Source of the DNA: Patescibacteria group bacterium UBA6532 | GTDB lineage: Bacteria > Patescibacteriota > Minisyncoccia > Minisyncoccales > UBA6532 | Direction: 5' to 3' | NCBI GenBank assembly: GCA_002434805.1 | Contig: DJKW01000009.1 | Span: 15,483-79,482, forward strand | DNA: 64,000 bases | In this document: piece after piece, positions 15,926-62,101 of the stretch | Position numbering within the stretch: the stretch's first letter is position 1 | Layout of the letters: every line of letters begins with the position of its first letter | Made by a program: the position numbers and the translations under genes | The notes under the pieces: model-generated | Seen by the model: the letters and a program-made list of their open reading frames with translations, nothing else | Told to the model about the DNA's origin: nothing | The model's database searches: none

Positions 15926-16819
15926 TTAAATGCTTTTTTGATGCCAACTTACTAAAAGAGGACTAGCTATAAAAATTGAAGAATAAGCTCCGGCTGAAAT
16001 GCCGATAATCATGATTAAGGAAAAATCTTTAAGAGTATAGCCGCCGAAAAAGAAAATAGCGAAAACTACTAATAAGGTAGTGAAAGAAGTGTTAATTGAC
16101 CGGCTTAAAGTCTGATTGAGAGATTTGTTTACTGTATCTTCAAAAGAAACCCCGACCCTCTTTAATAAATTTTCTCTAATCCTGTCAAAGACTATTACGG
16201 TGTCGTTTACCGAATATCCGAGGATAGCTAAAAGAGCGGCAATAAGAGGAATCGTAACCTGAAAGTCGTAATATCTTCCAAGGATTGACAATACTCCTAA
16301 GGGTATCAAAACATCGTGAAAAAGAGCAATTAAAGTAACGATTCCATACCTAAAAGAACTTACTGGTCTTTGAACTTTTCGAAAAGCAAAGGCAATATAC
16401 AAAACGATTGAGATAAGAGCTACAACAATAACTACTTTTATTTTATCTTTTAACTCTTGGCCTACTACCGGACCAATTGACTCAAATCTTTTTTCTTCTA
16501 TTGCAATTTCTCCGTCTTTACTTAATTTCTGAATAACTTCTTGATGGGTTTTCTCGTCTATATCTCTCATTCTAAGAATGACTCCTTTTTCATCGGTGGG
16601 CTGAGTGGAAAGAGAACCCAAATCAAGATCAGAAAGAGACTGGTTGATATCCTGGTTACTGGGTCTGGCTTCTATGTATTCTAGTTCTAAAAGGCTTCCT
16701 CCGGTAAACTCAATTCCAAAATTTAAACCAAAAACTATCAAAGAAAGAATACTTCCTCCGATTAAAATTCCAGAAAAGATATAGTAAATTTTACGGTATC
16801 TGAGAAAATTAACGTACAT
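15926..16819 (-). CDS. secF: Protein translocase subunit SecF
   Basis: GIEFTGGS, six TM helices, [11 protein letters not shown] motif. Confidence 0.9.
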
Positions 16820-17966
16820 GCTTTAATATTTCTTCTACCTTATCGATTTTCTCCCAGGTGAAATCAGGATCGTTTCTGCCAAAATGGCCGTAAGCTGCAG
16901 TCTTCATATATATTGGGCGCTTTAAATTTAAGTGTTCTATAATTTCTTTTGGCTTAAAATCAAATACTTTTTTAATAATTTCTGAGATTTCCTCGTCTGG
17001 AATCTTTCCTGTGCCTTTTGTATCAATAAGAATTGATACGGGCTGGGCAACCCCAATTGCATAAGCTACCTGTATTTCACATTTATCTGCAAGTTTAGCC
17101 GCCACTATATTCTTGGCGACATATCTTACCATGTAGGCCCCTGATCTATCGACTTTGGTAACGCATTTCCCTGAAAAAGCCCCTCCGCCGTGAGCTCCGT
17201 GCCCGCCATAAGTGTCAACAATGATTTTTCTGCCGGTTAAACCAGCATCAGCTGGCGGTCCGCCGAGGATAAATTTCCCTGTTGCATTAATAAAATATTT
17301 CGTATTCTCATCAGCGAAGTTTCCGACCACCGGCTTTATAACATGTTCTTTTATCTCTTCCCGAAGTTGTTCAAGACTGACGTCAATTGAATGATGAACG
17401 GCAATAACAATAGCTTCTACTCTTTTTGCTTTTCCATTTTCATATTCTATAGTAACCTGTGATTTTCCATCAGGCCTTAAATACGGCAAAGTTTTGTTCT
17501 TTCTTACTTCAGCAAGCTTCATTGTTAATTTATGAGCAAGAACTAACGGTAAAGGCATGAGTTCAGGAGTTTCATTTGTGGCATAGCCAAACATTAAGCC
17601 CTGATCACCGGCTCCTTGTTCTTTAAACGCTCCTTCCCCTTCATCAACGCCTTGAGCAATATCTGGAGACTGTTCGTGCAAAGTAACAACAACACCAACG
17701 TCCTCTGCGCAAAAACCATATTCCTGCTTGTCATATCCTATTTTTCTAAGGATATTTCTTACTGTTTTTTGTATATCAACGTATGCTTTTGTTCTTGCTT
17801 CCCCGCCGACTAAAACCAAACCGGTAGTGCAAAAGCATTCTATTCCAGCATGTGTATCAGGATCCTGTTTTAACATTTCGTCATAAATTCCGTCTGAAAT
17901 TTGATCAGCCACTTTGTCTGGATGCCCTTCGGTTACTGATTCTGATGTAAAAAAATATTTTTTCAT
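16809..17966 (-). CDS. metK: S-adenosylmethionine synthetase
   Basis: [56 protein letters not shown]. Confidence 0.97.
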
Positions 17967-36744: not shown

Positions 36745-37998
36745 ATGCCAAAATACTTTTTAAAAACCTACGGATGCCAGATGAATAAATCAGATTCAGA
36801 AAGAATTGCAGGTATTTTAGAAGAAAATAACTATAAACCAGCCTCTGATATGAAAGAAGCTGATTTAATATTGATTAACTCTTGCTCTATCAGGCAATCA
36901 GCCATTGACCGTATTTGGGGCCAAACTAAAATAATTTCAAAACTTAAAATCCAAAATCCAAAAATCAAAGCTGTCTTAACTGGATGCGTTTTAAAAAAAG
37001 ACAAAAGGAAATTTAAAGAAAGATTTGACTTGATTATAGATATAAAAGAGTTATCAAAGCTTCCTGGCTTTTTAAAAAATAAAACATCTATTAACAAACA
37101 TTACTTAAAAATTAAGCCAAAATATGAAACTTCTTTCAGAGCCTATATCCCCATAACGACCGGATGTAATAACTTTTGCAGCTATTGTGTTGTTCCCTAT
37201 ACCAGAGGAAAAGAAGTATCCAGACAAGCAAAAGAAATCATCTGTGAGATAGAAAGCTTAATAAAGCGAAACTATAAGGAGATTTGGCTCTTAGGAGAAA
37301 ACGTAAACTCATTCCGTTCAGGAAAGATTGATTTTCCAAAGCTCTTGGAAATGATTAATAATATTCCAGGGAACTTTTGGATTAGATTTACCAGCCCCCA
37401 CCCAAAAGACTTTTCCAATAAGCTTATCAATACCATTGCTCAATCTAAAAAAGCAACAGAATACATTCATCTTCCTGTCCAGTCTGGGGATGATAAGATT
37501 TTAAAAAAGATGAAACGCCCTTATACCTTAAAAATGTACAAAGACCTGGTGAAAAGAATCAGGAAAAGTATTCCTAAAATGGCTCTTTCAACTGACATTA
37601 TTGTTGGCTTTCCAGGAGAAACTATAAAACAGTTTGAGAATACAATAAAGCTTTTTAAAGAAATAAAGTTTGATATGGCCTATATCTCCCAATATTCTGC
37701 AAGACTTGGTACTTTATCATCTAAAATGGAAGATAATGTTTCTCATAAAGAAAAAGAAAGAAGAGATCTAGTCTTAACTAAAGTATTAAGCAAGACTGCT
37801 TTAAAAAACAACAAAGAATATATTGGAAAGAAAATAGAAGTTCTGATAGAGCAAAAGAAAAAAACATTCTTAATGGGAAAAACAAGAAGCTATAAAAGCA
37901 TAAGGTTTAAAGGAAATAAAAACCTAATTGGTAAGTTTGTAAAGGTTAAAATATTGGGAGCTTTACCATGGGGACTAAAGGGAGAACTAATAAAATAA
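36745..37998 (+). CDS. miaB: tRNA (i6A37) methylthiotransferase, radical SAM MiaB family
   Basis: UPF0004 N-domain (TYGCQMN), CNNFCSYCVVP radical SAM cluster, TRAM C-terminus. Adjacent to miaA. Confidence 0.85.
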   Translation: MPKYFLKTYGCQMNKSDSERIAGILEENNYKPASDMKEADLILINSCSIRQSAIDRIWGQTKIISKLKIQNPKIKAVLTGCVLKKDKRKFKERFDLIIDIKELSKLPGFLKNKTSINKHYLKIKPKYETSFRAYIPITTGCNNFCSYCVVPYTRGKEVSRQAKEIICEIESLIKRNYKEIWLLGENVNSFRSGKIDFPKLLEMINNIPGNFWIRFTSPHPKDFSNKLINTIAQSKKATEYIHLPVQSGDDKILKKMKRPYTLKMYKDLVKRIRKSIPKMALSTDIIVGFPGETIKQFENTIKLFKEIKFDMAYISQYSARLGTLSSKMEDNVSHKEKERRDLVLTKVLSKTALKNNKEYIGKKIEVLIEQKKKTFLMGKTRSYKSIRFKGNKNLIGKFVKVKILGALPWGLKGELIK

Positions 37999-37999
37999 T

Positions 38000-38890
38000 A
38001 TGGCAAACAATCCTAAACTTATTGTTATATTAGGCCAAACAGCTTCTGGGAAGAGTGATTTGGCAGTGAAACTAGCCAAAAAATTCAAAGGAGAGGTTGT
38101 TTCAGCTGACTCAAGACAAGTTTATAAAGGGATGGATATTGGAACAGGGAAAATAACCAAAAAAGAAATGATGGGCATCCCCCATCATCTTTTAAGCGTT
38201 GCTTCCCCTAAAAGAAGATTTACAGTAGCTCAATACAGAAAACTAGCTTTAAAATCTATTAAAAAGGTTATAAAAAATAAGAAGATTCCTTTTTTGGTCG
38301 GTGGAACAGGATTCTATATCCAATCAATAGTAGATGGAATTATAATACCTGAAGTTAAACCAGATTGGTCTCTTCGAGCTAAACTAGAAAAGAAAAAGAC
38401 AAAAGACCTTTTCAACTTACTCAAAAAACTCGATTTAAAGAGAGTTAAAAGTATTGATAAGAATAATCGTAGAAGATTAATCAGAGCTCTTGAGATTGTA
38501 ATGAAAACCAAAAAACCCATACCTCCTCTTAAAAAACTGCCGCCTCAATTTAATCTTTTAATAATCGGGGTTAAAAAATCACCATCTGAGCTTAAAAAAT
38601 TAATAAAGCAACGCCTTATTAAGAGATTAAAGCAAGGAATGGTAGCTGAAGTTAAAAAGTTAAAGAAAGCCGGACTCTCTTGGCAACGCCTTGAAGAGTT
38701 TGGTCTAGAATACCGGTATATTGCCAAATACCTTCAAGAGAAAATAACCTACAAAGAAATGATCGAAAAAATACAAAAAAAAGACGAGCATTACGCCCGC
38801 CGTCAAATAACTTGGTTCAAACGCGATAAACGAATCCACTGGATAACCAACCACAACCAAGCTCAAAAATTATTAAAACACTTCCTATAG
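38000..38890 (+). CDS. miaA: tRNA dimethylallyltransferase
   Basis: ILGQTASGKS P-loop, ADSRQVYKGMDIGTGK, GGTGFY. Ends in TAG. Confidence 0.9.
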   Translation: MANNPKLIVILGQTASGKSDLAVKLAKKFKGEVVSADSRQVYKGMDIGTGKITKKEMMGIPHHLLSVASPKRRFTVAQYRKLALKSIKKVIKNKKIPFLVGGTGFYIQSIVDGIIIPEVKPDWSLRAKLEKKKTKDLFNLLKKLDLKRVKSIDKNNRRRLIRALEIVMKTKKPIPPLKKLPPQFNLLIIGVKKSPSELKKLIKQRLIKRLKQGMVAEVKKLKKAGLSWQRLEEFGLEYRYIAKYLQEKITYKEMIEKIQKKDEHYARRQITWFKRDKRIHWITNHNQAQKLLKHFL

Positions 38891-39866: not shown

Positions 39867-41012
39867 TTATCTTACAATCGCCTTTAAATCTTTCTTTGTT
39901 TTCTCACGGATTAATTCTTGGATTTTGTTTATTTCTTTATTAGCCAAGGTTTTTTCGAATGAACGATAAGAAATACGGAATGTATAAGATTTTTTATCTT
40001 TACCAAATTTTTCTTCGTCTTCATACTCATCAATAAGTTTTACCTCTTCAATTAAATCAGCCGCAAAGTCTCTAACAATCTCGTAATAATTATTTAAATT
40101 TATATTCTTATTAATTATAAATGAAATATCTCTTGTGGTTTCAGGATATTTACTTATTTCTTTAAACTTACTGTTTATATCTTTAAACTGACTGGTAATT
40201 CGTGGGTCATCTGACCATAAGATTCTAATATCGGAAATCATCATTTTTACCATAGCTAATCTCTCGACCCCAAACCCAAACGCCCAGCCGTTGTAAATCT
40301 CAGGATCGATCCCAAATTTTTTCATCACTATTGGGTTTACTAGTCCGCATCCAACCACCTCCATCCATTCATCTCCTTGCTTTATATCCATTTCAAGACT
40401 TTCTATTGTATATGGAAAGTTATCTTTAACTACTTTCCATTCAATATTTTGGCCGAATAAGCTTTTGGCCACATCAACTAAGACATCAATTAAATCCTTT
40501 TGGCGGATAATCTTCTGGTCCTTTCTGCAAATATATAAACCATCCACTTGATGAAATGCCGGATAATGGTTTCTGTCAATTTCATCTTTTCTAAAGACTA
40601 TTCCCGCAGAGAGAGCCTCTATGTGACCTTTGTTTTTTAATCTTTCTAAAACTTCTGGTTTTTTTAAATAGAAAGACCAGAAAACAGTTGTGTGAGTACG
40701 CAAAACATGAGTATCGTCTAAAAAATAAGTGTCTGTTTCTTTCCTGCTGGGATGATCTTTTGGCATATTTAAAAGATCAAAACATTGTTCTACTGTAACA
40801 ATACGGGGGAAATCAACCAGGTCATAATCCTTAAATCTGGGAAGATTTATTATCTGATTAACTAAAATCTTAACTGGAGAATTCTTTTTCTTCGTTAAAT
40901 CTGGAAGCGCTAAAAGTCTTTTTATACGTTCCGCTTTAATGTCTTTTCTTTTATTTAAGTCTTTAATTAAAGCTTTCTCGGTTTTGTCTTCTATTGTTAT
41001 TTCTTTATTCAT
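39867..41012 (-). CDS. Phenylalanyl-tRNA synthetase, monomeric mitochondrial-like architecture (alpha catalytic core + FDX-ACB domain)
   Basis: KDHPSRKETDTYF, VLRTHTT, GIVFRKDEIDRNHYPAFHQVDG (motif 2), GWAFGFGVERLAM (motif 3). Then SKYPETTRDISFII...KSYTFRISYRSFEKTLANKEIN (beta-subunit-type anticodon-binding domain). Confidence 0.8.
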   Translation of the reverse strand: MNKEITIEDKTEKALIKDLNKRKDIKAERIKRLLALPDLTKKKNSPVKILVNQIINLPRFKDYDLVDFPRIVTVEQCFDLLNMPKDHPSRKETDTYFLDDTHVLRTHTTVFWSFYLKKPEVLERLKNKGHIEALSAGIVFRKDEIDRNHYPAFHQVDGLYICRKDQKIIRQKDLIDVLVDVAKSLFGQNIEWKVVKDNFPYTIESLEMDIKQGDEWMEVVGCGLVNPIVMKKFGIDPEIYNGWAFGFGVERLAMVKMMISDIRILWSDDPRITSQFKDINSKFKEISKYPETTRDISFIINKNINLNNYYEIVRDFAADLIEEVKLIDEYEDEEKFGKDKKSYTFRISYRSFEKTLANKEINKIQELIREKTKKDLKAIVR

Positions 41013-41022
41013 ATTACTTATC

Positions 41023-42480
41023 TTACTTTAAATCCTTTAATAAAATCTGCCTTACGCTTTCAGGGTTAGCTCTACCTTTAGAGCGAGCCATTACCTGCCC
41101 TACTAAAAACTGAAGGGCGTTTTCTTTTCCTTTCTTAAAATCCTCAACTGCTTTTTGATTTTTAACAATTACTTCTTTAACTATCTTCTCAATTTCTGAC
41201 TCATTCGTTATTAAAGAAAGATTCTTTTCCTTAATAATATGACTGGGATCAGCTCCGGTCTTAAACATTTCAGAAAGAACCTGTTTTGCAATCTTACTGG
41301 AGATTTTCCCTTCGTAAATTAAGGCGATGAATTCAGCAAAATCCTCAGGGGTGATCAAAAAATCCTTTCCCAAAGCCCCAACAAGTAAACCCTGAAGGTC
41401 AGTTAAGATATAGTTTGAAGCTAATTTAATCAACTTTTTTTCTTCAGCTTGTGAGATTTTTGTTTTTAATTCTACTGCCTTTACCCAGTTTTTTAATTCT
41501 GAAATAACTTTTTCAAAATACTCTCCCAAACTCTTATTTACGACAAAAACCTCAATAGATTTTTCATCCAACTTATACTCTCTAGCAAACCTTTCTCTGC
41601 GAGATTGAGGAAGTTCGGGAATTTCAGCCTTAATCTTATTAATATAATCTTTGCTTAGGCTTAGGGGAGGCAAATCAGGCTCTGGAAAATACCGATAATC
41701 ATGATCTTGTTCCTTTTCTCTCTGGCTGAGAGTAACCTCATCTCTGTCATTCCAGCCTCTTGTTTCGTGAAGAACTTTCTTGCCGGACGCCAACACCTTG
41801 CCTTGGCGTTCAATCTCATAGTCTAAAGCTCTCTCCACCACCCGAAAAGAATTCAAGTTTTTAATTTCTACCTTGGTTCCCAACTTCTTCCCTTTTTTTA
41901 AAGAAATATTAGCTTCAACTCTCATCTGCCCTTTTTCCATGTCAGCATCAGATACTTTAAGATATCTTAAAATAAGCTGGAGTCTTTGGCTAAACTTCCT
42001 TGCTTCCTTAGCTGACTTTATATCAGGTTCTGTCACTAACTCCATTAAAGGAATCCCCGCTCGATTAAAGTCAACCAATGAATAATCTTTTTCATGGATC
42101 AATCTTCCTGTATCCTCTTCTAAGTGAACTCTGGTAATGCTTATCTTATTTCCTCCAATGTTTAAAAACCCTCCTTTGCAAAGAGGCTTGTCGTATTGTG
42201 AAATCTGATAACCTTTGGGAAGATCGGGATAAAAGTAGTTTTTCCTGTCAAACTTTGAGTCTTCTGGAATTTTACAATTTAAGGCCAATCCGGTCTTTAT
42301 TGTTTTTTTAATCGCCTCTTCATTGATTACAGGAAGAGTGCCCGGATGCCCCATGCAAACAGGACAAACATTAATATTGGGATGTCGCTCTGAAGGATCG
42401 TTCAAAGAAGAACAAAACATCTTAGAGCGCGTCTTTAGCTCAATATGTATTTCTAAACCAATAGTTGGTAAATATTTCAT
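41023..42480 (-). CDS. gatB: Asp/Glu-tRNA amidotransferase subunit B
   Basis: PTIGLEIHIELKT, CPVCMGHPGTLP, RVEANISL, C-terminal GatB/YqeY domain. Confidence 0.95.
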   Translation of the reverse strand: MKYLPTIGLEIHIELKTRSKMFCSSLNDPSERHPNINVCPVCMGHPGTLPVINEEAIKKTIKTGLALNCKIPEDSKFDRKNYFYPDLPKGYQISQYDKPLCKGGFLNIGGNKISITRVHLEEDTGRLIHEKDYSLVDFNRAGIPLMELVTEPDIKSAKEARKFSQRLQLILRYLKVSDADMEKGQMRVEANISLKKGKKLGTKVEIKNLNSFRVVERALDYEIERQGKVLASGKKVLHETRGWNDRDEVTLSQREKEQDHDYRYFPEPDLPPLSLSKDYINKIKAEIPELPQSRRERFAREYKLDEKSIEVFVVNKSLGEYFEKVISELKNWVKAVELKTKISQAEEKKLIKLASNYILTDLQGLLVGALGKDFLITPEDFAEFIALIYEGKISSKIAKQVLSEMFKTGADPSHIIKEKNLSLITNESEIEKIVKEVIVKNQKAVEDFKKGKENALQFLVGQVMARSKGRANPESVRQILLKDLK

Positions 42481-42515: not shown

Positions 42516-42548
42516 CAACAAAAAAAGACCAAATATATAATTTGGTCT
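42516..42548 (-). terminator. Intrinsic terminator after the dcd/MtrA-like/ThyA-like operon
   Basis: Perfect 9-bp stem agaccaaat/atttggtct (42526-42548) with a 5-nt loop, followed on the minus strand by a U-run. Confidence 0.7.
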
Positions 42549-42564
42549 CCATAAATCAAATTGC

Positions 42565-43341
42565 CTATTTTAAGCTGAACTTCTCTCTTACTTCCTTATA
42601 CATATCTTTATAAATATGCATGCTGACTGAAAAATGAGTATAAGTTCCCGTGTCCACTGAAAGCTCGTCTGCCATATACTTTTGGAGAGCGGTAAAAGCG
42701 TAAGCGTTTTCCGGCCAGGCATTATAAAGATCATTAGTCTTCATGACGACAAACATATGGAGTTTTCCATCAACCAGCTGAGGATAAAACAATAAAACGC
42801 AGGGTGAAGAAGAATCCTCTCTTTTAGGCCCGAATTTCATTAAATCCCTGTAAGGAATCCAAGTATGCATTACTACTGTTCTCCGGGTGGGATCTTTCTT
42901 TAAAATGCCTATTGCTTTTTCAACCTGGTCTATCCGCTTTACAACACACTTTCCATCAGGGGAAATCTTTTTAATCTCTTCGGCTAATTCTTCGTCAGTA
43001 TCAGTTACGCTCGGTAAAAATGCCCTGACTTTACAGTCCGGATAGCAGCGAAGCCGGGAATAATAAGTATAGTCAAAGCTGTTCTCGTTTTCCTTGCCAG
43101 AGCCCTCTAAAAACTTCTTGGCGTATTCATCAGCCAACTCTTTAGTGGTATTGGTTTTATTACTCAGCCTTGGCTCAGAAAAAGGGTCTGAAACCTTAAT
43201 TAAAAGCGGGATATCTTTTGTTTCAATTTGGTATTCTGGAGCCTGGACGTGCCGATCGTGCCCCTCTGTCATTATTAAAATACAGGACTTTTCCCAGGCC
43301 TCTCCTAAGTTTTTTGCTTCTATTATTTTTGTTTCGTACAT
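42565..43341 (-). CDS. Thymidylate synthase-fold protein, divergent archaeal-like (ThyA / pyrimidine C5-transferase family)
   Basis: DQVEKAIGILKKDPTRRTVV, catalytic SSSPCVLLFYPQLVDGKLHMFVVMKTNDLYNAWPENAYAF, SVSMHIY. Canonical RSxD reads KTND. Confidence 0.7.
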   Translation of the reverse strand: MYETKIIEAKNLGEAWEKSCILIMTEGHDRHVQAPEYQIETKDIPLLIKVSDPFSEPRLSNKTNTTKELADEYAKKFLEGSGKENENSFDYTYYSRLRCYPDCKVRAFLPSVTDTDEELAEEIKKISPDGKCVVKRIDQVEKAIGILKKDPTRRTVVMHTWIPYRDLMKFGPKREDSSSPCVLLFYPQLVDGKLHMFVVMKTNDLYNAWPENAYAFTALQKYMADELSVDTGTYTHFSVSMHIYKDMYKEVREKFSLK

Positions 43342-43344
43342 AAA

Positions 43345-44187
43345 TTAGTCAAACCAGTCGTACTCATTATCTTGTTTAACTGATTCTTTTTTTAAAATTA
43401 ATTCGCTGCCTTGTTCGTAATCTAGGTCATTCTTGAGAGCAATTTCCGCTTTTTGGAGCTCTCTTGCCAAATACATTGAATGCTCTCTGGTCTGTTTAAA
43501 GTCCCCTATTAAATCCAGATTGGCAATTGTTTTGGAAATACCTTCTGCTGAATCTCCGATTATTTTCCTCATTAGCTTACTATCTTGATAATGTTCAGCA
43601 ATAATTTTCTTTCTCTTCCTCTCGATAGAAATAACAAAAAAACCTTTAGGGTCAATTACAAAATCAGGACAAGACCTTGCTTCTATCTCTTCTACTTCTT
43701 TAATCTCTATGGGTTTTCCGTCAAAAGGCCCTGGATTTTGTTTTAAATAACTATTAACCTTTTCCATTATTCTTGAAGGATTTTCTTCCGGCATTAAATC
43801 TATAGGGGCTACTTGTTTACGAAATCTCTCTATTATGTCTTTATTAACGCTTCTTAAAAAAGGAATATTCCCTTTAGCTCCTATAATCCTCTTTTTTTCA
43901 TCAACTCCGTTTTTTTTCAGGGAAATAAATGCCTGGGAAACAAAGTGTCCTTTTGAAACCTTCCCGCAAAGAATGAGAAATCTGATGTGGGGATTGGAAA
44001 CAATGTTTTGAATAATTTTTTCAATACCGATGTTTTCTGTAACGCACTTGCCAATGATTGAAACTTTTTCCATATCCAGGTCAATTCCAGCTACCGTGGC
44101 ATTAGTGCATACGGCCACTGCTGATTTCACATTACCTACTTTATACCTTCCTTCCAGCGGCGGCCACTTTTTAAGGTCCCCTGCCAT
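43345..44187 (-). CDS. Soluble MtrA-like (corrinoid-binding methyltransferase subunit A homologue) fused to a DUF4346-like C-terminal domain
   Basis: WPPLEGRYKVGN, AVAVCT, TENIGIEKIIQNIVSNPHIRFLILCGKVSKGH, NGVDEKKRIIGAKGNIPFL align with methanogen MtrA as recalled. No TM helix. C-half DPKGFFVISIE.... Confidence 0.7.
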   Translation of the reverse strand: MAGDLKKWPPLEGRYKVGNVKSAVAVCTNATVAGIDLDMEKVSIIGKCVTENIGIEKIIQNIVSNPHIRFLILCGKVSKGHFVSQAFISLKKNGVDEKKRIIGAKGNIPFLRSVNKDIIERFRKQVAPIDLMPEENPSRIMEKVNSYLKQNPGPFDGKPIEIKEVEEIEARSCPDFVIDPKGFFVISIERKRKKIIAEHYQDSKLMRKIIGDSAEGISKTIANLDLIGDFKQTREHSMYLARELQKAEIALKNDLDYEQGSELILKKESVKQDNEYDWFD

Positions 44188-44192
44188 TCTGA

Positions 44193-44768
44193 TTATTTTT
44201 TAAAATCCTGGTTAATTCTGCTCGCTCTCGGTGATTTTTGGTTTGCGTACTTTTGACCTTCTTTCTTAGAATAAGGAGTTTCGCAAGGAGAAGAAAGCGT
44301 TTCAAAGGTTAAAGCGCAAATCCGCATTCCCGAGTATAAAACAACAGGCATAATTCCCAAATTTCCCAATTCCATTACGGCATTCCCCTGCCAACCCGGA
44401 TCAAATCTGGAAGCGGTAGAATGAACTACTATTCCAAGCCTGCCCAAAGAGCTTCTCCCGTCAAGCCTGGCCATTAGGTCTGAAGGCAAGGTGAAGTCTT
44501 CTTTGGTTGTTGCTAAAATAAATGCTTTTGGCTGGAGAATAAATGGAGCATCATCTTCTATCTCTACTTCTTCCATGAATTTCTCAAAATCAATTTTTCT
44601 TTTGAGGTCTAAATAAGGATACTGGCTGGGTTTAAAGGTTTTAAAAATGTTCCCCAAATGCAAGTCTAAAGAACAAGGTCCCAGTTGTTCCTTTAAATTC
44701 GGCTCTGGCTCTATTTTTATTTTGCCAGATTTTAGGTATTCTTTAATGTCTTTATCTGAAAGAATCAT
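44193..44768 (-). CDS. dcd: dCTP deaminase (possibly bifunctional DCD-DUT type)
   Basis: MILSDKDI, GPCSLDLHLG, LDGRSSLGRLG, ELGNLG, YANQKS. Close to the M. jannaschii-type enzyme as recalled. Confidence 0.9.
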   Translation of the reverse strand: MILSDKDIKEYLKSGKIKIEPEPNLKEQLGPCSLDLHLGNIFKTFKPSQYPYLDLKRKIDFEKFMEEVEIEDDAPFILQPKAFILATTKEDFTLPSDLMARLDGRSSLGRLGIVVHSTASRFDPGWQGNAVMELGNLGIMPVVLYSGMRICALTFETLSSPCETPYSKKEGQKYANQKSPRASRINQDFKK

Positions 44769-44773
44769 ATGAT

Positions 44774-45196
44774 TTATTCAACGGTTATTCCCATATTGCG
44801 AGCTGTACCTTCAATTATTTTCATTGCCTGTTCAAGATCGGTAGTATTTAAATCCTCCAGCTTCTTTTTAGCGATTTCTCTTAACTGGGTTTTGCTAATT
44901 TTCGCCACCTTGGTCTTATTAGGCTCTCCTGACCCTTTCTCAATTCCCACTGCTTTCTTTAAAAGCTCAGAAGCCGGGGGCTGCTTTAATTTAAAAGCAT
45001 AAGTTCTGTCTTCAAAAACCGTAATCTCTACTGGAATTTTAAAACCAACGTTATTTTTAGTAGCGTCATTAAATTTCTGGCAGAATTCGGAGATATTCAA
45101 TCCGTGTTGAGCTAAAGCCGGTCCCACCGGAGGGGCGGGCGTTGCTTTAGAAGCTGGTATCTGAAGTTTTATAACAGCTTTAATTTTTTTTGGCAT
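44774..45196 (-). CDS. rplK: 50S ribosomal protein L11
   Basis: [38 protein letters not shown]. Confidence 0.97.
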
Positions 45197-45200
45197 ATGA

Positions 45201-45746
45201 TTAAATCTTTTTAATTTGCAAAGAATCTAATTCGACAGGCGTATCCCTTCCGAACATATTTACTAATACCTTTATTTTACCTCTTGATTCATCTACTTCT
45301 GAAACCTTCCCGTCAAAATCTTTAAAGGGGCCGTCAACAACCTTTACGGCATCACCAGCTTTAACGTCAATTTTGTACTGTGGAGTTTCAACCCCCATCC
45401 TTTTCTTTAAAGTTTCTATCTCTTCAAGGGAAACGGGTACCGGCGTAGTGCCCGCTCCGACAAATCCCGTAACATTAGGGGTATTTCTCACAACGTACCA
45501 GGAATCGTCAGTAACGATCATTTCTACCAGAACATAGCCCGGATAAATTTTTTCTTCTACTATTTTTCTTTTACTGTTCTTAATCTTAATCTTTTTCTCT
45601 TTAGGGACGATAACATCAAAAATTTTATCTTCCATACTCAAAGATTCGATCCTTTGCTTTAAGTTTCTCGCTACAGCGTCCTCGTAGCCAGAGTAAGTAT
45701 GAATAACATACCAATTTCTCTCTTTGGAAATTTGTTGCTTTGGCAT
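45201..45746 (-). CDS. nusG: Transcription termination/antitermination factor NusG
   Basis: [14 protein letters not shown] domain, KOW motif [18 protein letters not shown]. Confidence 0.95.
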
Positions 45747-58518: not shown

Positions 58519-58594
58519 TGGTGGGCGTGGGAGGGATCGAACCTCCGACCTCGTCTTTATCAGAGACGCGCTCTAACCTCTGAGCTACACGCCC
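58519..58594 (-). tRNA. tRNA-Ile (anticodon GAU), CCA encoded
   Basis: GGGCGTGTAGCTCAGAGGTTAGAGCGCGTCTCTGATAAAGACGAGGTCGGAGGTTCGATCCCTCCCACGCCCACCA. Confidence 0.93.
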
Positions 58595-58599
58595 AATAA

Positions 58600-59184
58600 T
58601 TACTTATTTTTTCTCAAAACTGTGAAGTATTCGTAAAATAAAATAAGTAAATTAAAAGTTAATTTGCTTTCAATATGCGAAAAAGACATATTTTTAATAA
58701 TTTCTTTTATCTTTTTAGGGTTTACTTTATGCAGATGTATCTTTCTTGCCATAAAGGGATTTCCATACATTTCAATGGCAGCCCCGATAGCTTGAATTCC
58801 TAAAATAGGCTCGTAAGGATAAGCTATTACAACTTTTCCACCTGGCTTTAAAACTTTTTCTATTTCTTTAAAAAACTTCGTCAAATCAGGAGTATGCTCG
58901 ATAGTATGAAGAGAATAAACTTTATCAAAGGTATTCTCTTTAAAGTTCAAGCTAGCAGCATCGCTATACTCTACTTTTTTGGTAACTGATTTTTTTAAAG
59001 AAATTCTGTCTATATCAACTCCTCTTATTTCTTTGGTATATTTTTCCATCTCTCTAACGTAAAAACCCCGGCTACATCCAATATCTAATATCTTTTCACC
59101 TTTCTTTGGTTTTAAATATTTAATGAGGGTTTTAAAACGGATTGGATTAAAGTTTATTGTCTGACGATATTCATTATTTTTCAT
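58600..59184 (-). CDS. Class I SAM-dependent methyltransferase
   Basis: Motif I ILDIGCSRGFY and KPGGKVVIAYP (Methyltransf_11-like). Confidence 0.75.
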   Translation of the reverse strand: MKNNEYRQTINFNPIRFKTLIKYLKPKKGEKILDIGCSRGFYVREMEKYTKEIRGVDIDRISLKKSVTKKVEYSDAASLNFKENTFDKVYSLHTIEHTPDLTKFFKEIEKVLKPGGKVVIAYPYEPILGIQAIGAAIEMYGNPFMARKIHLHKVNPKKIKEIIKNMSFSHIESKLTFNLLILFYEYFTVLRKNK

Positions 59185-59253
59185 ATCTAGGAATTAGCAT
59201 ACGATAATATATTAGCAAATTAAAGGCTCAAAATCAATTTATCAAGGTTCAGC

Positions 59254-60404
59254 TCAGTTTTGTTTTCTTTTGCGGAAAAATAATAACACTAAAATTATTA
59301 CTAACACCAAACCGAATCCTGCTAATAGTTTAGTTAATGACAAGCCCTCGTTTTGAATTAATATTCCGGCGGCCTCAACTATTGAAGCCTGGGCTTTGGC
59401 TAGATCTAAAGGAAAATTATCTCTTGAATCTATAACTCCATCTCCATCGCTATCTTCTATTAAAAAATTGGTTCCAAGGTCTATTTCCTCTTTATCTGAA
59501 AGGCCGTCATTGTCGGTATCTGGACTTAAGGGGTCAGTTCCAAAAACAAACAACTCTTCCTCATCGGCTATTCCGTCATTATCATCATCTAAATCAGTAT
59601 TATTCCCTAAACCATCTTTATCTGTGTCTTGCCATTCGGTTGAATCTAAAGAAAAGACGTCATCTCCATCTTCAACCATATCTCCGTCAGTATCTCTGTT
59701 AAATGAATCGGTGCCAACAATTTTCTCGACTTCATCGGCTACTCCGTCATTGTCGTCATCTAAATCAGCGTTATTTCCAATACTGTCGCCGTCATTATCT
59801 TCGCTTTCAGCTGGATTAAGAGGGAAAACATCTTCCTTGTCAGCCACTCCATCTCCATCGCTATCTGGATTTAAGGGGTCAGTTCCTAAAATTACCTCTT
59901 TGCTGTCTAAAAGACCGTCTTCGTCATCATCTAAATCTTTAACGTTTCCTATGCCGTCTCCGTCAGTATCTAAGTCAACGAAATATTTTCTCGAGTAGCT
60001 ACGTTATCTATCGGACTCTCGTCTTGAAAATTGGTTCCAATAATTTTAGCCTGGACATCATAAATACCTGCTTTAATTTGCCAGTCGATAAAAACATCGT
60101 CATAAGTACTGGCCTTAATAGAAATGGGTTGAGGGTCTGTAATTATTTCATCATTGATTAAAAAAACAACGAATCCGTAAACGTCTACATCGCCAACATT
60201 AAATATCCTGGCGAAAATTCTAATCTTATCTCCTTCTAAAGGGTCTTCCTTAGAAAAAGTTATATCAGATACTTTAAGAGAAAGATCTACTTTGGCCAAA
60301 GAATCCTTAATAGAGAATGTAAGGATTAAAAATATTATTATCAGTACCAGAGTTATTGAAAATGGCTTCTTCATAATATAGTTCAACTGTTTAAATTCTA
60401 CCAT
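59254..60404 (-). pseudogene. Surface protein (signal/TM + CARDB-like beta-sandwich + thrombospondin type-3 Ca-binding repeats + C-terminal TM) split by an apparent 1-nt frameshift at about 59975-60003
   Basis: Upstream ORF (59970-60404) ends ...DNVATRENISLT*. The other frame is open from 60003 and reads ...FVDLDTDGDGIGNVKDLDDDEDG..., continuing into the 59254-59847 ORF (DxDxDGxxDxxD repeats). No start codon precedes the first repeats. Confidence 0.6.
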
Positions 60405-60422
60405 TTATTAAGCTAGTTTATC

Positions 60423-60454
60423 AAAAAAAACTGCACTAGAATAGTCTAGTGCAG
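60423..60454 (-). terminator. Strong intrinsic terminator ending the 16S transcription unit
   Basis: Perfect 9-bp stem ctgcactag/ctagtgcag (60431-60454) with a 6-nt loop, followed on the minus strand by U8 (A-run 60423-60430). Confidence 0.75.
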
Positions 60455-60482
60455 TAAAAGCAAAACAGCTTTGTTAATATTG

Positions 60483-60501
60483 GTTCTTTAGAGTTGTCCT
60501 G
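60483..60501 (-). repeat. 3' half of the 16S processing stem
   Basis: gttctttagagttgtcctg is the exact reverse complement of 62111-62129 (19 bp). Confidence 0.75.
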
Positions 60502-60608
60502 GATCTCGTTTTAAGGTGTCGAGATCAACACCTTGTAGTTAAAATCCGAATTCCAGATTTCAACTACAGTCGACAACTATAATGTCTACAAATAACAAAA
60601 TTATTTGT

Positions 60609-62101
<1,493 letters not shown>

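Follow-up and report, generated by a model that had tools for sequence, protein, structure and literature searches.

A single-chain phenylalanyl-tRNA synthetase as the probable housekeeping PheRS of a Parcubacteria-type bacterium

We describe a gene in a 64-kb stretch of DNA (hereafter the window) from a Parcubacteria-like bacterium of the candidate phyla radiation (CPR). It encodes, on one chain of 381 residues, both the catalytic core of phenylalanyl-tRNA synthetase (PheRS) and a ferredoxin-fold anticodon-binding (FDX-ACB) domain. Comparative analysis suggests that the product is a functional single-chain PheRS and probably the housekeeping PheRS of this Parcubacteria-type host. In the textbook view, bacterial PheRS is an (alpha-beta)2 heterotetramer and the single-chain form is an oddity of organelles. 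The present gene, by contrast, belongs to a large bacterial lineage that appears to rely on a 381-aa single-chain enzyme as its standard PheRS. The sections below document the architecture of the protein, the conservation of its pocket and of the residues that read anticodon base G34, strong purifying selection on the gene, its spread as a single gene through the lineage, and its distinctness from the related SrmL ligases.

RESULTS

A PheRS core and an anticodon-binding domain share one chain

The gene had been singled out in an initial annotation made from the sequence alone, which described a 381-aa open reading frame (ORF) in a CPR bacterium, joining a PheS-type alpha core to a C-terminal FDX-ACB domain and lacking both the PheS coiled coil and an adjacent pheT. 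Each of these statements was upheld. The ORF and all the strings quoted from it, KDHPSRKETDTYF to KSYTFRISYRSFEKTL, are present, the host genome is of the Parcubacteria-like CPR type, and a public protein collection holds a protein (P0001) that is 100% identical. The gene and its parts are laid out as follows.

39867..41012, minus strand: single-chain PheRS ORF, complete, 381 aa plus stop, ATG start (from the ORF list)
40899..41012, minus strand: N-terminal region, residues 1-38, two short helices, standing where canonical PheS has a coiled coil of ~90 aa
40185..40898, minus strand: class II PheRS catalytic core, residues 39-276 (PF01409 tRNA-synt_2d, E=1.5e-55)
40155..40184, minus strand: inter-domain linker, residues 277-286, presumed hinge (the gap between the two Pfam domains)
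39870..40154, minus strand: C-terminal FDX-ACB anticodon-binding domain, residues 287-381 (PF03147, E=1.4e-23)
41023..42480, minus strand: gatB, Asp/Glu-tRNA amidotransferase subunit B (GatB_N and GatB_Yqey), directly upstream; genomic context, not part of the enzyme

The core carries KDHPSRKETDTYF (residues 85-97, with HPSR at 87-90), motif 2 FRKDEIDRNHYPAFHQVDG (140-158), an FPYT loop (199-202) and motif 3 GWAFGFGVERLAM (242-254). The C-terminal domain opens with SKYPETTRDISFII (287-300), and KSYTFRISYRSFEKTL begins at residue 341. The PF03147 match is full length (model positions 1-94 of 94), and this end of the protein aligns with the last domain of PheT (TIGR00472 positions 692-798). At the other end, the Pfam scan gave no match to PF02912, the N-terminal coiled coil of PheS, which all except one of the canonical PheS proteins retrieved for comparison possess. 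The alignment to TIGR00468 begins at model position 36, and the predicted model places helices at residues 10-21 and 25-35. Neither flanking gene is pheT: gatB lies on one side and a 78-aa ORF downstream, with miaA/miaB on the opposite strand. A six-frame phmmer search of the 64-kb window, with the window protein, E. coli PheS and E. coli PheT as queries, found no second PheS- or PheT-like ORF.

The amino-acid pocket and the anticodon reader are conserved

Landmark residues of E. coli PheS were placed on the alignment, and conservation was scored over 121 close family sequences. Identical in the window protein are H149, R152, R195, D197, H202, F206, H207 and Q208, together with F248, P249, T251, G292, A294, F295, G296 and R301 (E. 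coli numbering). All of these are conserved across the 121 sequences, apart from R152, which is K in one. T251 and A294, the specificity gatekeepers of E. coli PheS, are the positions changed in the relaxed-specificity pheS alleles used for counterselection. Two substitutions are conservative: E210 is replaced by D157, with D fixed throughout the clade, and F250 by Y201, with Y in 113 of the 121 sequences. The motif-3 residue E300 is D or E within the family.

Human mitochondrial PheRS (mtPheRS) reads G34 through Asp364, which is essential, Phe366, Ser375 and Arg414, Phe366 being the counterpart of Tyr-beta731 in T. thermophilus PheRS (PMC7540514). These four residues align to D328, Y330, S342 and R381 of the window protein, R381 being its final residue. 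Across the 121 family sequences D328, S342 and R381 never vary, and position 330 is occupied by Y or F throughout. Because the landmark and G34-reading residues are kept in these 121 sequences, the pocket and the GAA-anticodon reader are, judged from sequence, both intact. In all likelihood the window protein works as a single-chain PheRS.

The closest solved relative is the human mitochondrial enzyme

In a search of PDB sequences, the best solved relatives were human mtPheRS entries (E~2e-56). Their alignment is broken into two stretches by an insertion of ~30 residues in the human enzyme. The matches of bacterial PheS chains were confined to the core and those of PheT chains to the last ~95 residues; E. 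coli PheS scores 127 bits against the window protein. The strings of human FARS2 that the initial annotation cited proved essentially right when set against the PDB sequences, except that the human protein has FHQLEA and not FHQLEG. Of the three family models that it proposed as a check, both Pfam domains matched, but pheS_mito (TIGR00469) gave 240.3 bits against a cutoff of 258.35; three other family members scored 231-237 bits on the same model. The top NCBIfam match was SrmL, the 'PheS-related mystery ligase' (NF051887), at 246.9 bits (cutoff 300, E=3e-73), and pheS (TIGR00468) reached 179.5 bits (cutoff 237.45).

An AlphaFold2 model of the window protein, built on a 54-sequence alignment, had a pLDDT of 95.7 and a pTM of 0.91. 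Foldseek against the PDB ranked closed human mtPheRS (3CMQ, 5MGx) at the top, with a query-normalised template-modelling score (TMq) of 0.79 and an rmsd of ~3 Å over ~389 columns spanning both domains. The tRNA-bound open human form 3TUP matched the predicted model with a TM score of 0.59, and bacterial PheS alpha chains matched the core only (TMq ~0.55). The predicted fold is thus that of the closed state, and in the model both the fold and the relative arrangement of the domains match solved human mtPheRS.

The single-chain family is widespread in Parcubacteria

A protein homolog search (E<=1e-10) returned 3876 proteins. The best 120 of these are all 367-400 aa long, have this pair of domains and match the window protein at 73-100% identity. 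Source names among the homologs include Parcubacteria, Nealsonbacteria, Wolfebacteria, Staskawiczbacteria and Pacebacteria. The homologs are labelled 'PheRS alpha chain' by JGI, and thousands of database copies bear either this label or 'hypothetical protein', both of which we consider mistaken. A scan of one genome per GTDB species found the gene in 31 species representatives (55-77% identity), almost all Patescibacteria by title, and orthologs at 55-81% identity occur in dozens of independent Parcubacteria assemblies. Some of the contigs that bear the gene are long, at 702 kb (JBBTWE010000001.1), 804 kb (Ga0265297_10000012) and 549 kb (JAKAEA010000001.1). The single-chain family is therefore widespread in Parcubacteria/Paceibacterota, and throughout a group of tiny CPR bacteria it seems to be the usual form of PheRS.

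Across all 12 genome pairs that allow the comparison, the protein is better conserved than GyrB (e.g., 74 vs 68% and 63 vs 54%), and it also outranks GatB, LepA, MiaA, MiaB and MurJ where these can be compared; only NusG and the adjoining small ORF (44777-45226) equal or surpass it. Conservation above that of GyrB is the behaviour of an essential translation enzyme and not of an accessory gene. Gene order around the PheRS gene is only loosely conserved: 12 loci have gyrB within 10 kb, gatB is its neighbour in close relatives only, and the context otherwise varies. For this reason, a conserved neighbourhood was dropped as a clue to function.

Evidence on a possible role as the sole PheRS of the cell

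No canonical PheT (B3_4/B5) or PheS was found in 0.53 Mb of sequence comprising the window and 34 family loci, a few percent of each genome; as a control for the PheT search, a Bacteroidales PheT scored 465 bits. The published tables of Nelson & Stegen lend indirect support to an absence of PheT. In the supplements of their study of 17 Parcubacteria genomes, including the closed genome RAAC4, a 'pheS' core family is present in 16 genomes, and the list of core families (those in at least 13 of the 17) has entries for argS, aspS, leuS, lysS and others and none for pheT/COG0072 (PMC4508563). The marker table of that study (Tables S1/S2) gives the Pfam domain FDX-ACB the name 'pheT' and records exactly one match per genome in 16 of the 17; all 17 have tRNA-synt_2d, which ACD76 and ACD66 carry in two copies (PMC4508563). 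The PheT-specific domains B5 and Phe_tRNA-synt_N are not among its markers present in at least 16 genomes, and the authors offer no comment on a fused-gene pattern. One fused gene per genome and no PheT explains both tables: since marker sets score pheT through FDX-ACB, a fused gene is counted as 'pheS' and as 'pheT' alike. The second tRNA-synt_2d copy in ACD76 and ACD66 is perhaps SrmL.

Other searches covered neighbouring ground. The nearest canonical PheS representative (P0236) has its relatives in Lentisphaerae/Victivallales and not in CPR. In a metagenome scan for PheT with an alignment of the E. coli and Bacteroidales proteins, the best 80 matches all lay near the Bacteroidales query, at 47-62% identity. 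We found no PheRS rows in the supplementary tables of other Patescibacteria studies looked up by KO, COG or name, nothing relevant in the literature on PheT markers (TIGR00472, PF03484, COG0072) in Patescibacteria, and, in our literature search, no article describing a bacterial single-chain PheRS or SrmL. We consider it reasonably likely that the window protein is the sole PheRS of the cell.

SrmL is a distinct, remodelled relative

A 143-kb Patescibacteria contig (L021) carries two PheS-like genes ~8 kb apart. One encodes a 76%-identical ortholog of the window protein, which likewise falls under all NCBIfam cutoffs. The other encodes a true SrmL, scoring 399.8 bits against the cutoff of 300 and only 31% identical to the window protein. 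The SrmL proteins form a separate clade with 100% bootstrap support. In the SrmL pocket, F248 has become H in 8/8, F295 is L, M or S, H149 is N, S or D, and F206 is mostly P; in the G34 reader, T, I or V replaces the aromatic residue, Asn replaces Ser in 8/8, and the terminal Arg varies. From eight to nine SrmL sequences we derived a signature of H at F248, L, M or S at F295, Asn at the position of human Ser375 and a non-aromatic residue at that of Phe366. At these signature positions the window protein has F199, F245, S342 and Y330, all of the PheRS type.

The gene contexts of SrmL also differ from that of the window gene. SrmL P0238 (L165:8001-9149) lies beside a radical-SAM gene and NUDIX-like and Asn-synthase/QueC-like genes. 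The SrmL gene of L021 (17916-19031, minus strand) is convergent with a gene for a divergent LysRS-like protein (16360-17808, plus strand; 264 bits on lysS models, cutoff 468) and next to an IS30 transposase. Given the separate clade, the altered pocket and G34 reader and the differing contexts, SrmL appears to be a neofunctionalised relative of which the window protein is the conservative, PheRS-like counterpart. We therefore rejected the assignment of the window protein to SrmL: it scores below the cutoff, it keeps the pocket and G34 residues, and its ortholog coexists with a true SrmL on L021.

Single-chain PheRS also occurs on viral-collection contigs and in other bacteria

An exhaustive search over 1.84 billion cluster representatives yielded 8760 relatives, 260 of them at E<=1e-30. 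Those of ~420-500 aa that align in two stretches and could be named are eukaryotic (Salpingoeca, a Coemansia 'mitochondrial PheRS', Pteridium). Many of the relatives of 345-360 aa are metagenomic, and one (P0277, L037:10001-11047) lies on a 341-kb contig with phage-like genes. A 635-kb GenBank 'uncultured phage' encodes a full-length homolog (LR745206.1:613875-614888). In IMG/VR, an uncurated viral collection, 45 contigs (L040-L084) carry a full-length single-chain PheRS that is 32-41% identical over residues ~38-381. Many of these contigs measure 200-536 kb, as huge phages do, one reaches 1.47 Mb, and six are labelled GVMAG, for giant-virus metagenome-assembled genomes (MAGs). On one of 533 kb (L040), five tRNA genes lie within 13 kb of the PheRS gene, and the protein matches a PHROG family. 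The pocket and G34 residues are largely conserved in the IMG/VR proteins; taken overall, single-chain PheRS from the virus collection and from phage-like contigs are 28-41% identical to the window protein. No counterpart was found in BFVD, a curated viral structure set.

The nearest relatives outside the family (P0122 and P0407-P0415) are 58-67% identical to one another, and beyond this subclade the search yields Parcubacteria only. They belong to diderm bacteria of GC~50%, with MlaA and an outer-membrane beta-barrel protein as neighbours, and include P0122, P0412 and P0408 on L038, L166 and L167; P0122 is 47% identical to the window protein, and one genome of this sister subclade is labelled an Oligoflexia MAG. 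We also note a 456-aa homolog, P0127 (L039:9463-10833), in a CPR-like context of GC 0.33 whose neighbours are an ATP synthase operon, two dCTP deaminases and a peptidase S66. Read with table 11, its gene contains 13 in-frame TGA codons; only table 4 gives a match to the database protein. Since P0127 matches only if UGA is read as sense, this lineage is taken to be UGA-recoded.

A neighbour-joining tree (54 sequences, 339 columns, 200 bootstrap replicates, simple distance correction) separated canonical PheS from all single-chain forms with 100% bootstrap support. Among the latter, clade A (84%) unites the Parcubacteria family and its nearest relatives, including P0127 and its UGA-recoded CPR-like lineage, with SrmL. 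Clade B (96%) holds the viral, giant-virus, metagenomic and eukaryotic sequences. The initial annotation had proposed that the layout is the hallmark of mitochondrial PheRS and that the gene bears on the origin of the organellar enzyme, with a phylogeny as the means to check. Neither proposal was sustained. The layout is not a mitochondrial hallmark, because it is also found on the 45 IMG/VR contigs, in the GC~50% diderm bacteria and in the SrmL family. Nor is a direct tie to the origin of the organellar enzyme indicated, because the eukaryotic enzymes are sister to the CPR-type group in 0% of replicates and the window protein falls below the TIGR00469 cutoff. Provisionally, since neighbour joining is weak at such depth, nothing points to the CPR clade as the direct source of organellar PheRS.

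Genomic context in the window

The stop codon of gatB is 10 nt from the ATG of the PheRS gene. No terminator-like site was found between them, and a terminator-like and promoter-like site lies upstream of gatB, at 42524-42559. The two genes are therefore likely to be co-transcribed as an operon. gatB is also present in the PheRS loci of two close relatives (L015 and L022). The window further encodes 16S rRNA, RNase P RNA, DnaE, a canonical ThrRS, SecA, GyrB and NusG. Outside the 16S region its GC content stays even, at ~0.32-0.41, and that of the PheRS gene matches its flanks. These surroundings and the even GC place the gene in a native housekeeping region.

Some further features of the window are recorded here. 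miaB and miaA (36745-38890, plus strand) are convergent to the PheRS gene at a distance of ~1 kb, and miaA is also near the PheRS gene in L015 and L022, which may be coincidence. The products of miaB and miaA make ms2i6A37 on tRNAs that read UNN codons, tRNAPhe included. A run of nucleotide-metabolism genes at 42565-44768 (minus strand) includes a dCTP deaminase and a divergent thymidylate-synthase-like protein, of which PF00303 covers only the C-terminal half. One protein in this run combines an MtrA-like domain (PF04208) with PterinBD-DUF4346; such an MtrA-like/pterin-binding protein beside a thymidylate-synthase-like gene is unusual for a bacterium. Finally, in the region 58519-62101 (minus strand), the 16S rRNA gene (60609-62101) and a tRNA-Ile gene (58519-58594) are split by two ORFs, one with TSP3 repeats and one for a methyltransferase. 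No 23S rRNA gene follows the 16S gene in the window, the next gene being ClpB-like. The rRNA genes thus appear to be unlinked.

DISCUSSION

How the enzyme may work

By homology to human mtPheRS, the class II core would bind Phe and ATP and yield Phe-AMP, and the fused FDX-ACB domain would recognise tRNAPhe chiefly via G34, with D328, Y330, S342 and R381. In the closed, resting enzyme this domain is packed on the catalytic domain, and it would therefore have to swing out on the linker of residues 277-286, in a large hinge movement from the closed to the open state that admits the tRNA. Such a movement is suggested by the contrast between the matches to closed 3CMQ and open 3TUP and by the published hinge analysis, which locates the hinge of the human enzyme in the equivalent connector between catalytic and anticodon-binding domains (PMC7540514). 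Phe would then be passed to A76 of the tRNA, and the enzyme would, like its human relative, act as a monomer. The window protein has no B3/B4 editing domain, and hence no means of editing mischarged Tyr-tRNAPhe in cis; fidelity would be left to the synthetic site by itself or to factors acting in trans.

Alternative explanations

Several observations count against a housekeeping single-chain PheRS. The window protein is under every curated NCBIfam cutoff (SrmL, pheS_mito and pheS), two pocket positions depart from canonical PheS (E210 to D and F250 to Y), its relatives are annotated by NCBI as 'hypothetical protein', and the 0.53-Mb search for PheT and PheS sampled only a few percent of each genome. 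In addition, some other CPR lineages possess PheRS beta (PMC5370408), so the single-chain enzyme characterises a lineage and not CPR as a whole. That finding would also fit a second, accessory enzyme of PheRS or PheRS-like type, perhaps serving as a back-up or under particular conditions, beside a canonical (alpha-beta)2 PheRS, as would the sister subclade in GC~50% diderm bacteria, organisms expected to have pheST. We think this unlikely, however: conservation above GyrB in 12 of 12 pairs is unusual for an accessory paralog, in the tables of PMC4508563, 16 of 17 Parcubacteria genomes each have exactly one FDX-ACB gene and pheT is absent from the core families, and the family loci sampled contain no PheT. 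A different possibility is a PheS-type alpha subunit that needs an unrecognised partner, such as a stand-alone tRNA-binding or editing protein. Stand-alone tRNA_bind genes (PF01588, PheT-B2/Trbp111-like, ~106-130 aa) do lie within 10 kb of the PheRS gene at L001:5122-5442, L033:18043-18483 and L167:4939-5328, and their products could serve as trans tRNA-binding helpers. Yet they are found near the gene in just 3 of ~39 loci, for which reason we rejected them as obligatory partners; the fused FDX-ACB domain already provides an anticodon reader, and human mtPheRS, with the same layout, functions as a monomer. A partner-dependent alpha subunit is accordingly very improbable.

The top NCBIfam match and the shared two-domain layout might instead place the window protein in SrmL (NF051887), as a ligase descended from PheS that acts outside translation, probably in biosynthesis. 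We give this minimal credence, as the score of 246.9 bits is short of the curated cutoff of 300, and a true SrmL, from a clade of its own, coexists on L021 with a close ortholog of the window protein. SrmL, moreover, has a remodelled pocket and has lost the G34 reader, both of which the window family retains, and it resides in a radical-SAM cassette or by a LysRS-like gene, whereas the window gene follows gatB. Foreign DNA, whether recently acquired from a eukaryote or virus or introduced as a contaminant of assembly or binning, is hardly credible, even though relatives exist on IMG/VR contigs and in eukaryotic organelles. The gene has the GC of its flanks and sits 10 nt behind gatB among 16S rRNA, DnaE, ThrRS, SecA and GyrB. 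Its orthologs recur in dozens of Parcubacteria assemblies that are independent of one another, 12 of the loci have gyrB close by, and the family is its own clade, separate from viral and eukaryotic sequences. An ancient transfer into the ancestor of the lineage is possible and would be compatible with a housekeeping role for the single-chain PheRS.

Implications

If the single-chain protein is indeed the PheRS of this lineage, it would be among the most compact bacterial solutions to an essential step of translation and a natural case of life without cis-editing of Tyr-tRNAPhe. It would also account for the odd behaviour of the pheS (TIGR00468) and pheT (TIGR00472) markers in these genomes and give grounds to re-annotate many entries now listed as 'hypothetical protein'. 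A 'pheT' marker based on FDX-ACB can mask a missing true beta subunit in completeness estimates of Parcubacteria. The frequency of the layout on viral-collection contigs, and the grouping of eukaryotes there, reframe the question of where mitochondrial PheRS came from. A more sweeping scenario can be drawn, in which this enzyme is the sole PheRS of all Parcubacteria/Paceibacterota, which discarded the (alpha-beta)2 enzyme, otherwise universal in bacteria, together with its editing site, and in which it belongs to an old mobile lineage common to CPR, huge phages and giant viruses that gave rise to eukaryotic organellar PheRS and, by duplication, to SrmL. That both parts of this scenario hold together strikes us as rather doubtful.

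Comparison with known systems

The human and yeast mitochondrial enzymes (FARS2, MSF1; TIGR00469; 3CMQ, 3TUP) are built in the same way, with a class II core and a C-terminal FDX-ACB domain on one chain. Human mtPheRS shares with the window protein the Phe-pocket motifs, the four G34-reading positions and the lack of an editing domain, and its closed domain packing and fold are those of the predicted model (TM 0.79). It is organellar, however, whereas the window protein is bacterial and shorter, at 381 aa without the ~30-residue human insertion, with an identity of ~30-41%. The window protein also departs from it in having D for E in FHQxD/EG and Y as the second aromatic residue of the FPF loop, scores under the TIGR00469 cutoff, and falls in clade A while the eukaryotic enzymes fall in clade B.

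Canonical (alpha-beta)2 PheRS (TIGR00468/TIGR00472) resembles the window protein piecewise, the core corresponding to PheS and the C-terminal domain to the last domain of PheT, and the aromatic residue that stacks on G34 is Tyr, as is Tyr-beta731 of T. thermophilus. In contrast to the canonical enzyme, the window protein has no PF02912 coiled coil, no separate beta subunit, and none of B1-B5, the B3/B4 editing domain or B6/7; it combines both functions on a single 381-aa chain, and its gene stands outside a pheST operon.

Among paralogs, SrmL (NF051887) is the clade nearest to the window family in the tree (clade A, 84%). It shares the two-domain layout and is also found in Patescibacteria (L021), but it is only 31% identical to the window protein, its pocket and anticodon residues are replaced, and its gene neighbourhoods differ. 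The IMG/VR single-chain PheRS share the layout of core and FDX-ACB at 32-41% identity; unlike the window protein, they are found on viral-collection contigs and group with eukaryotes in clade B, and the form is absent from BFVD.

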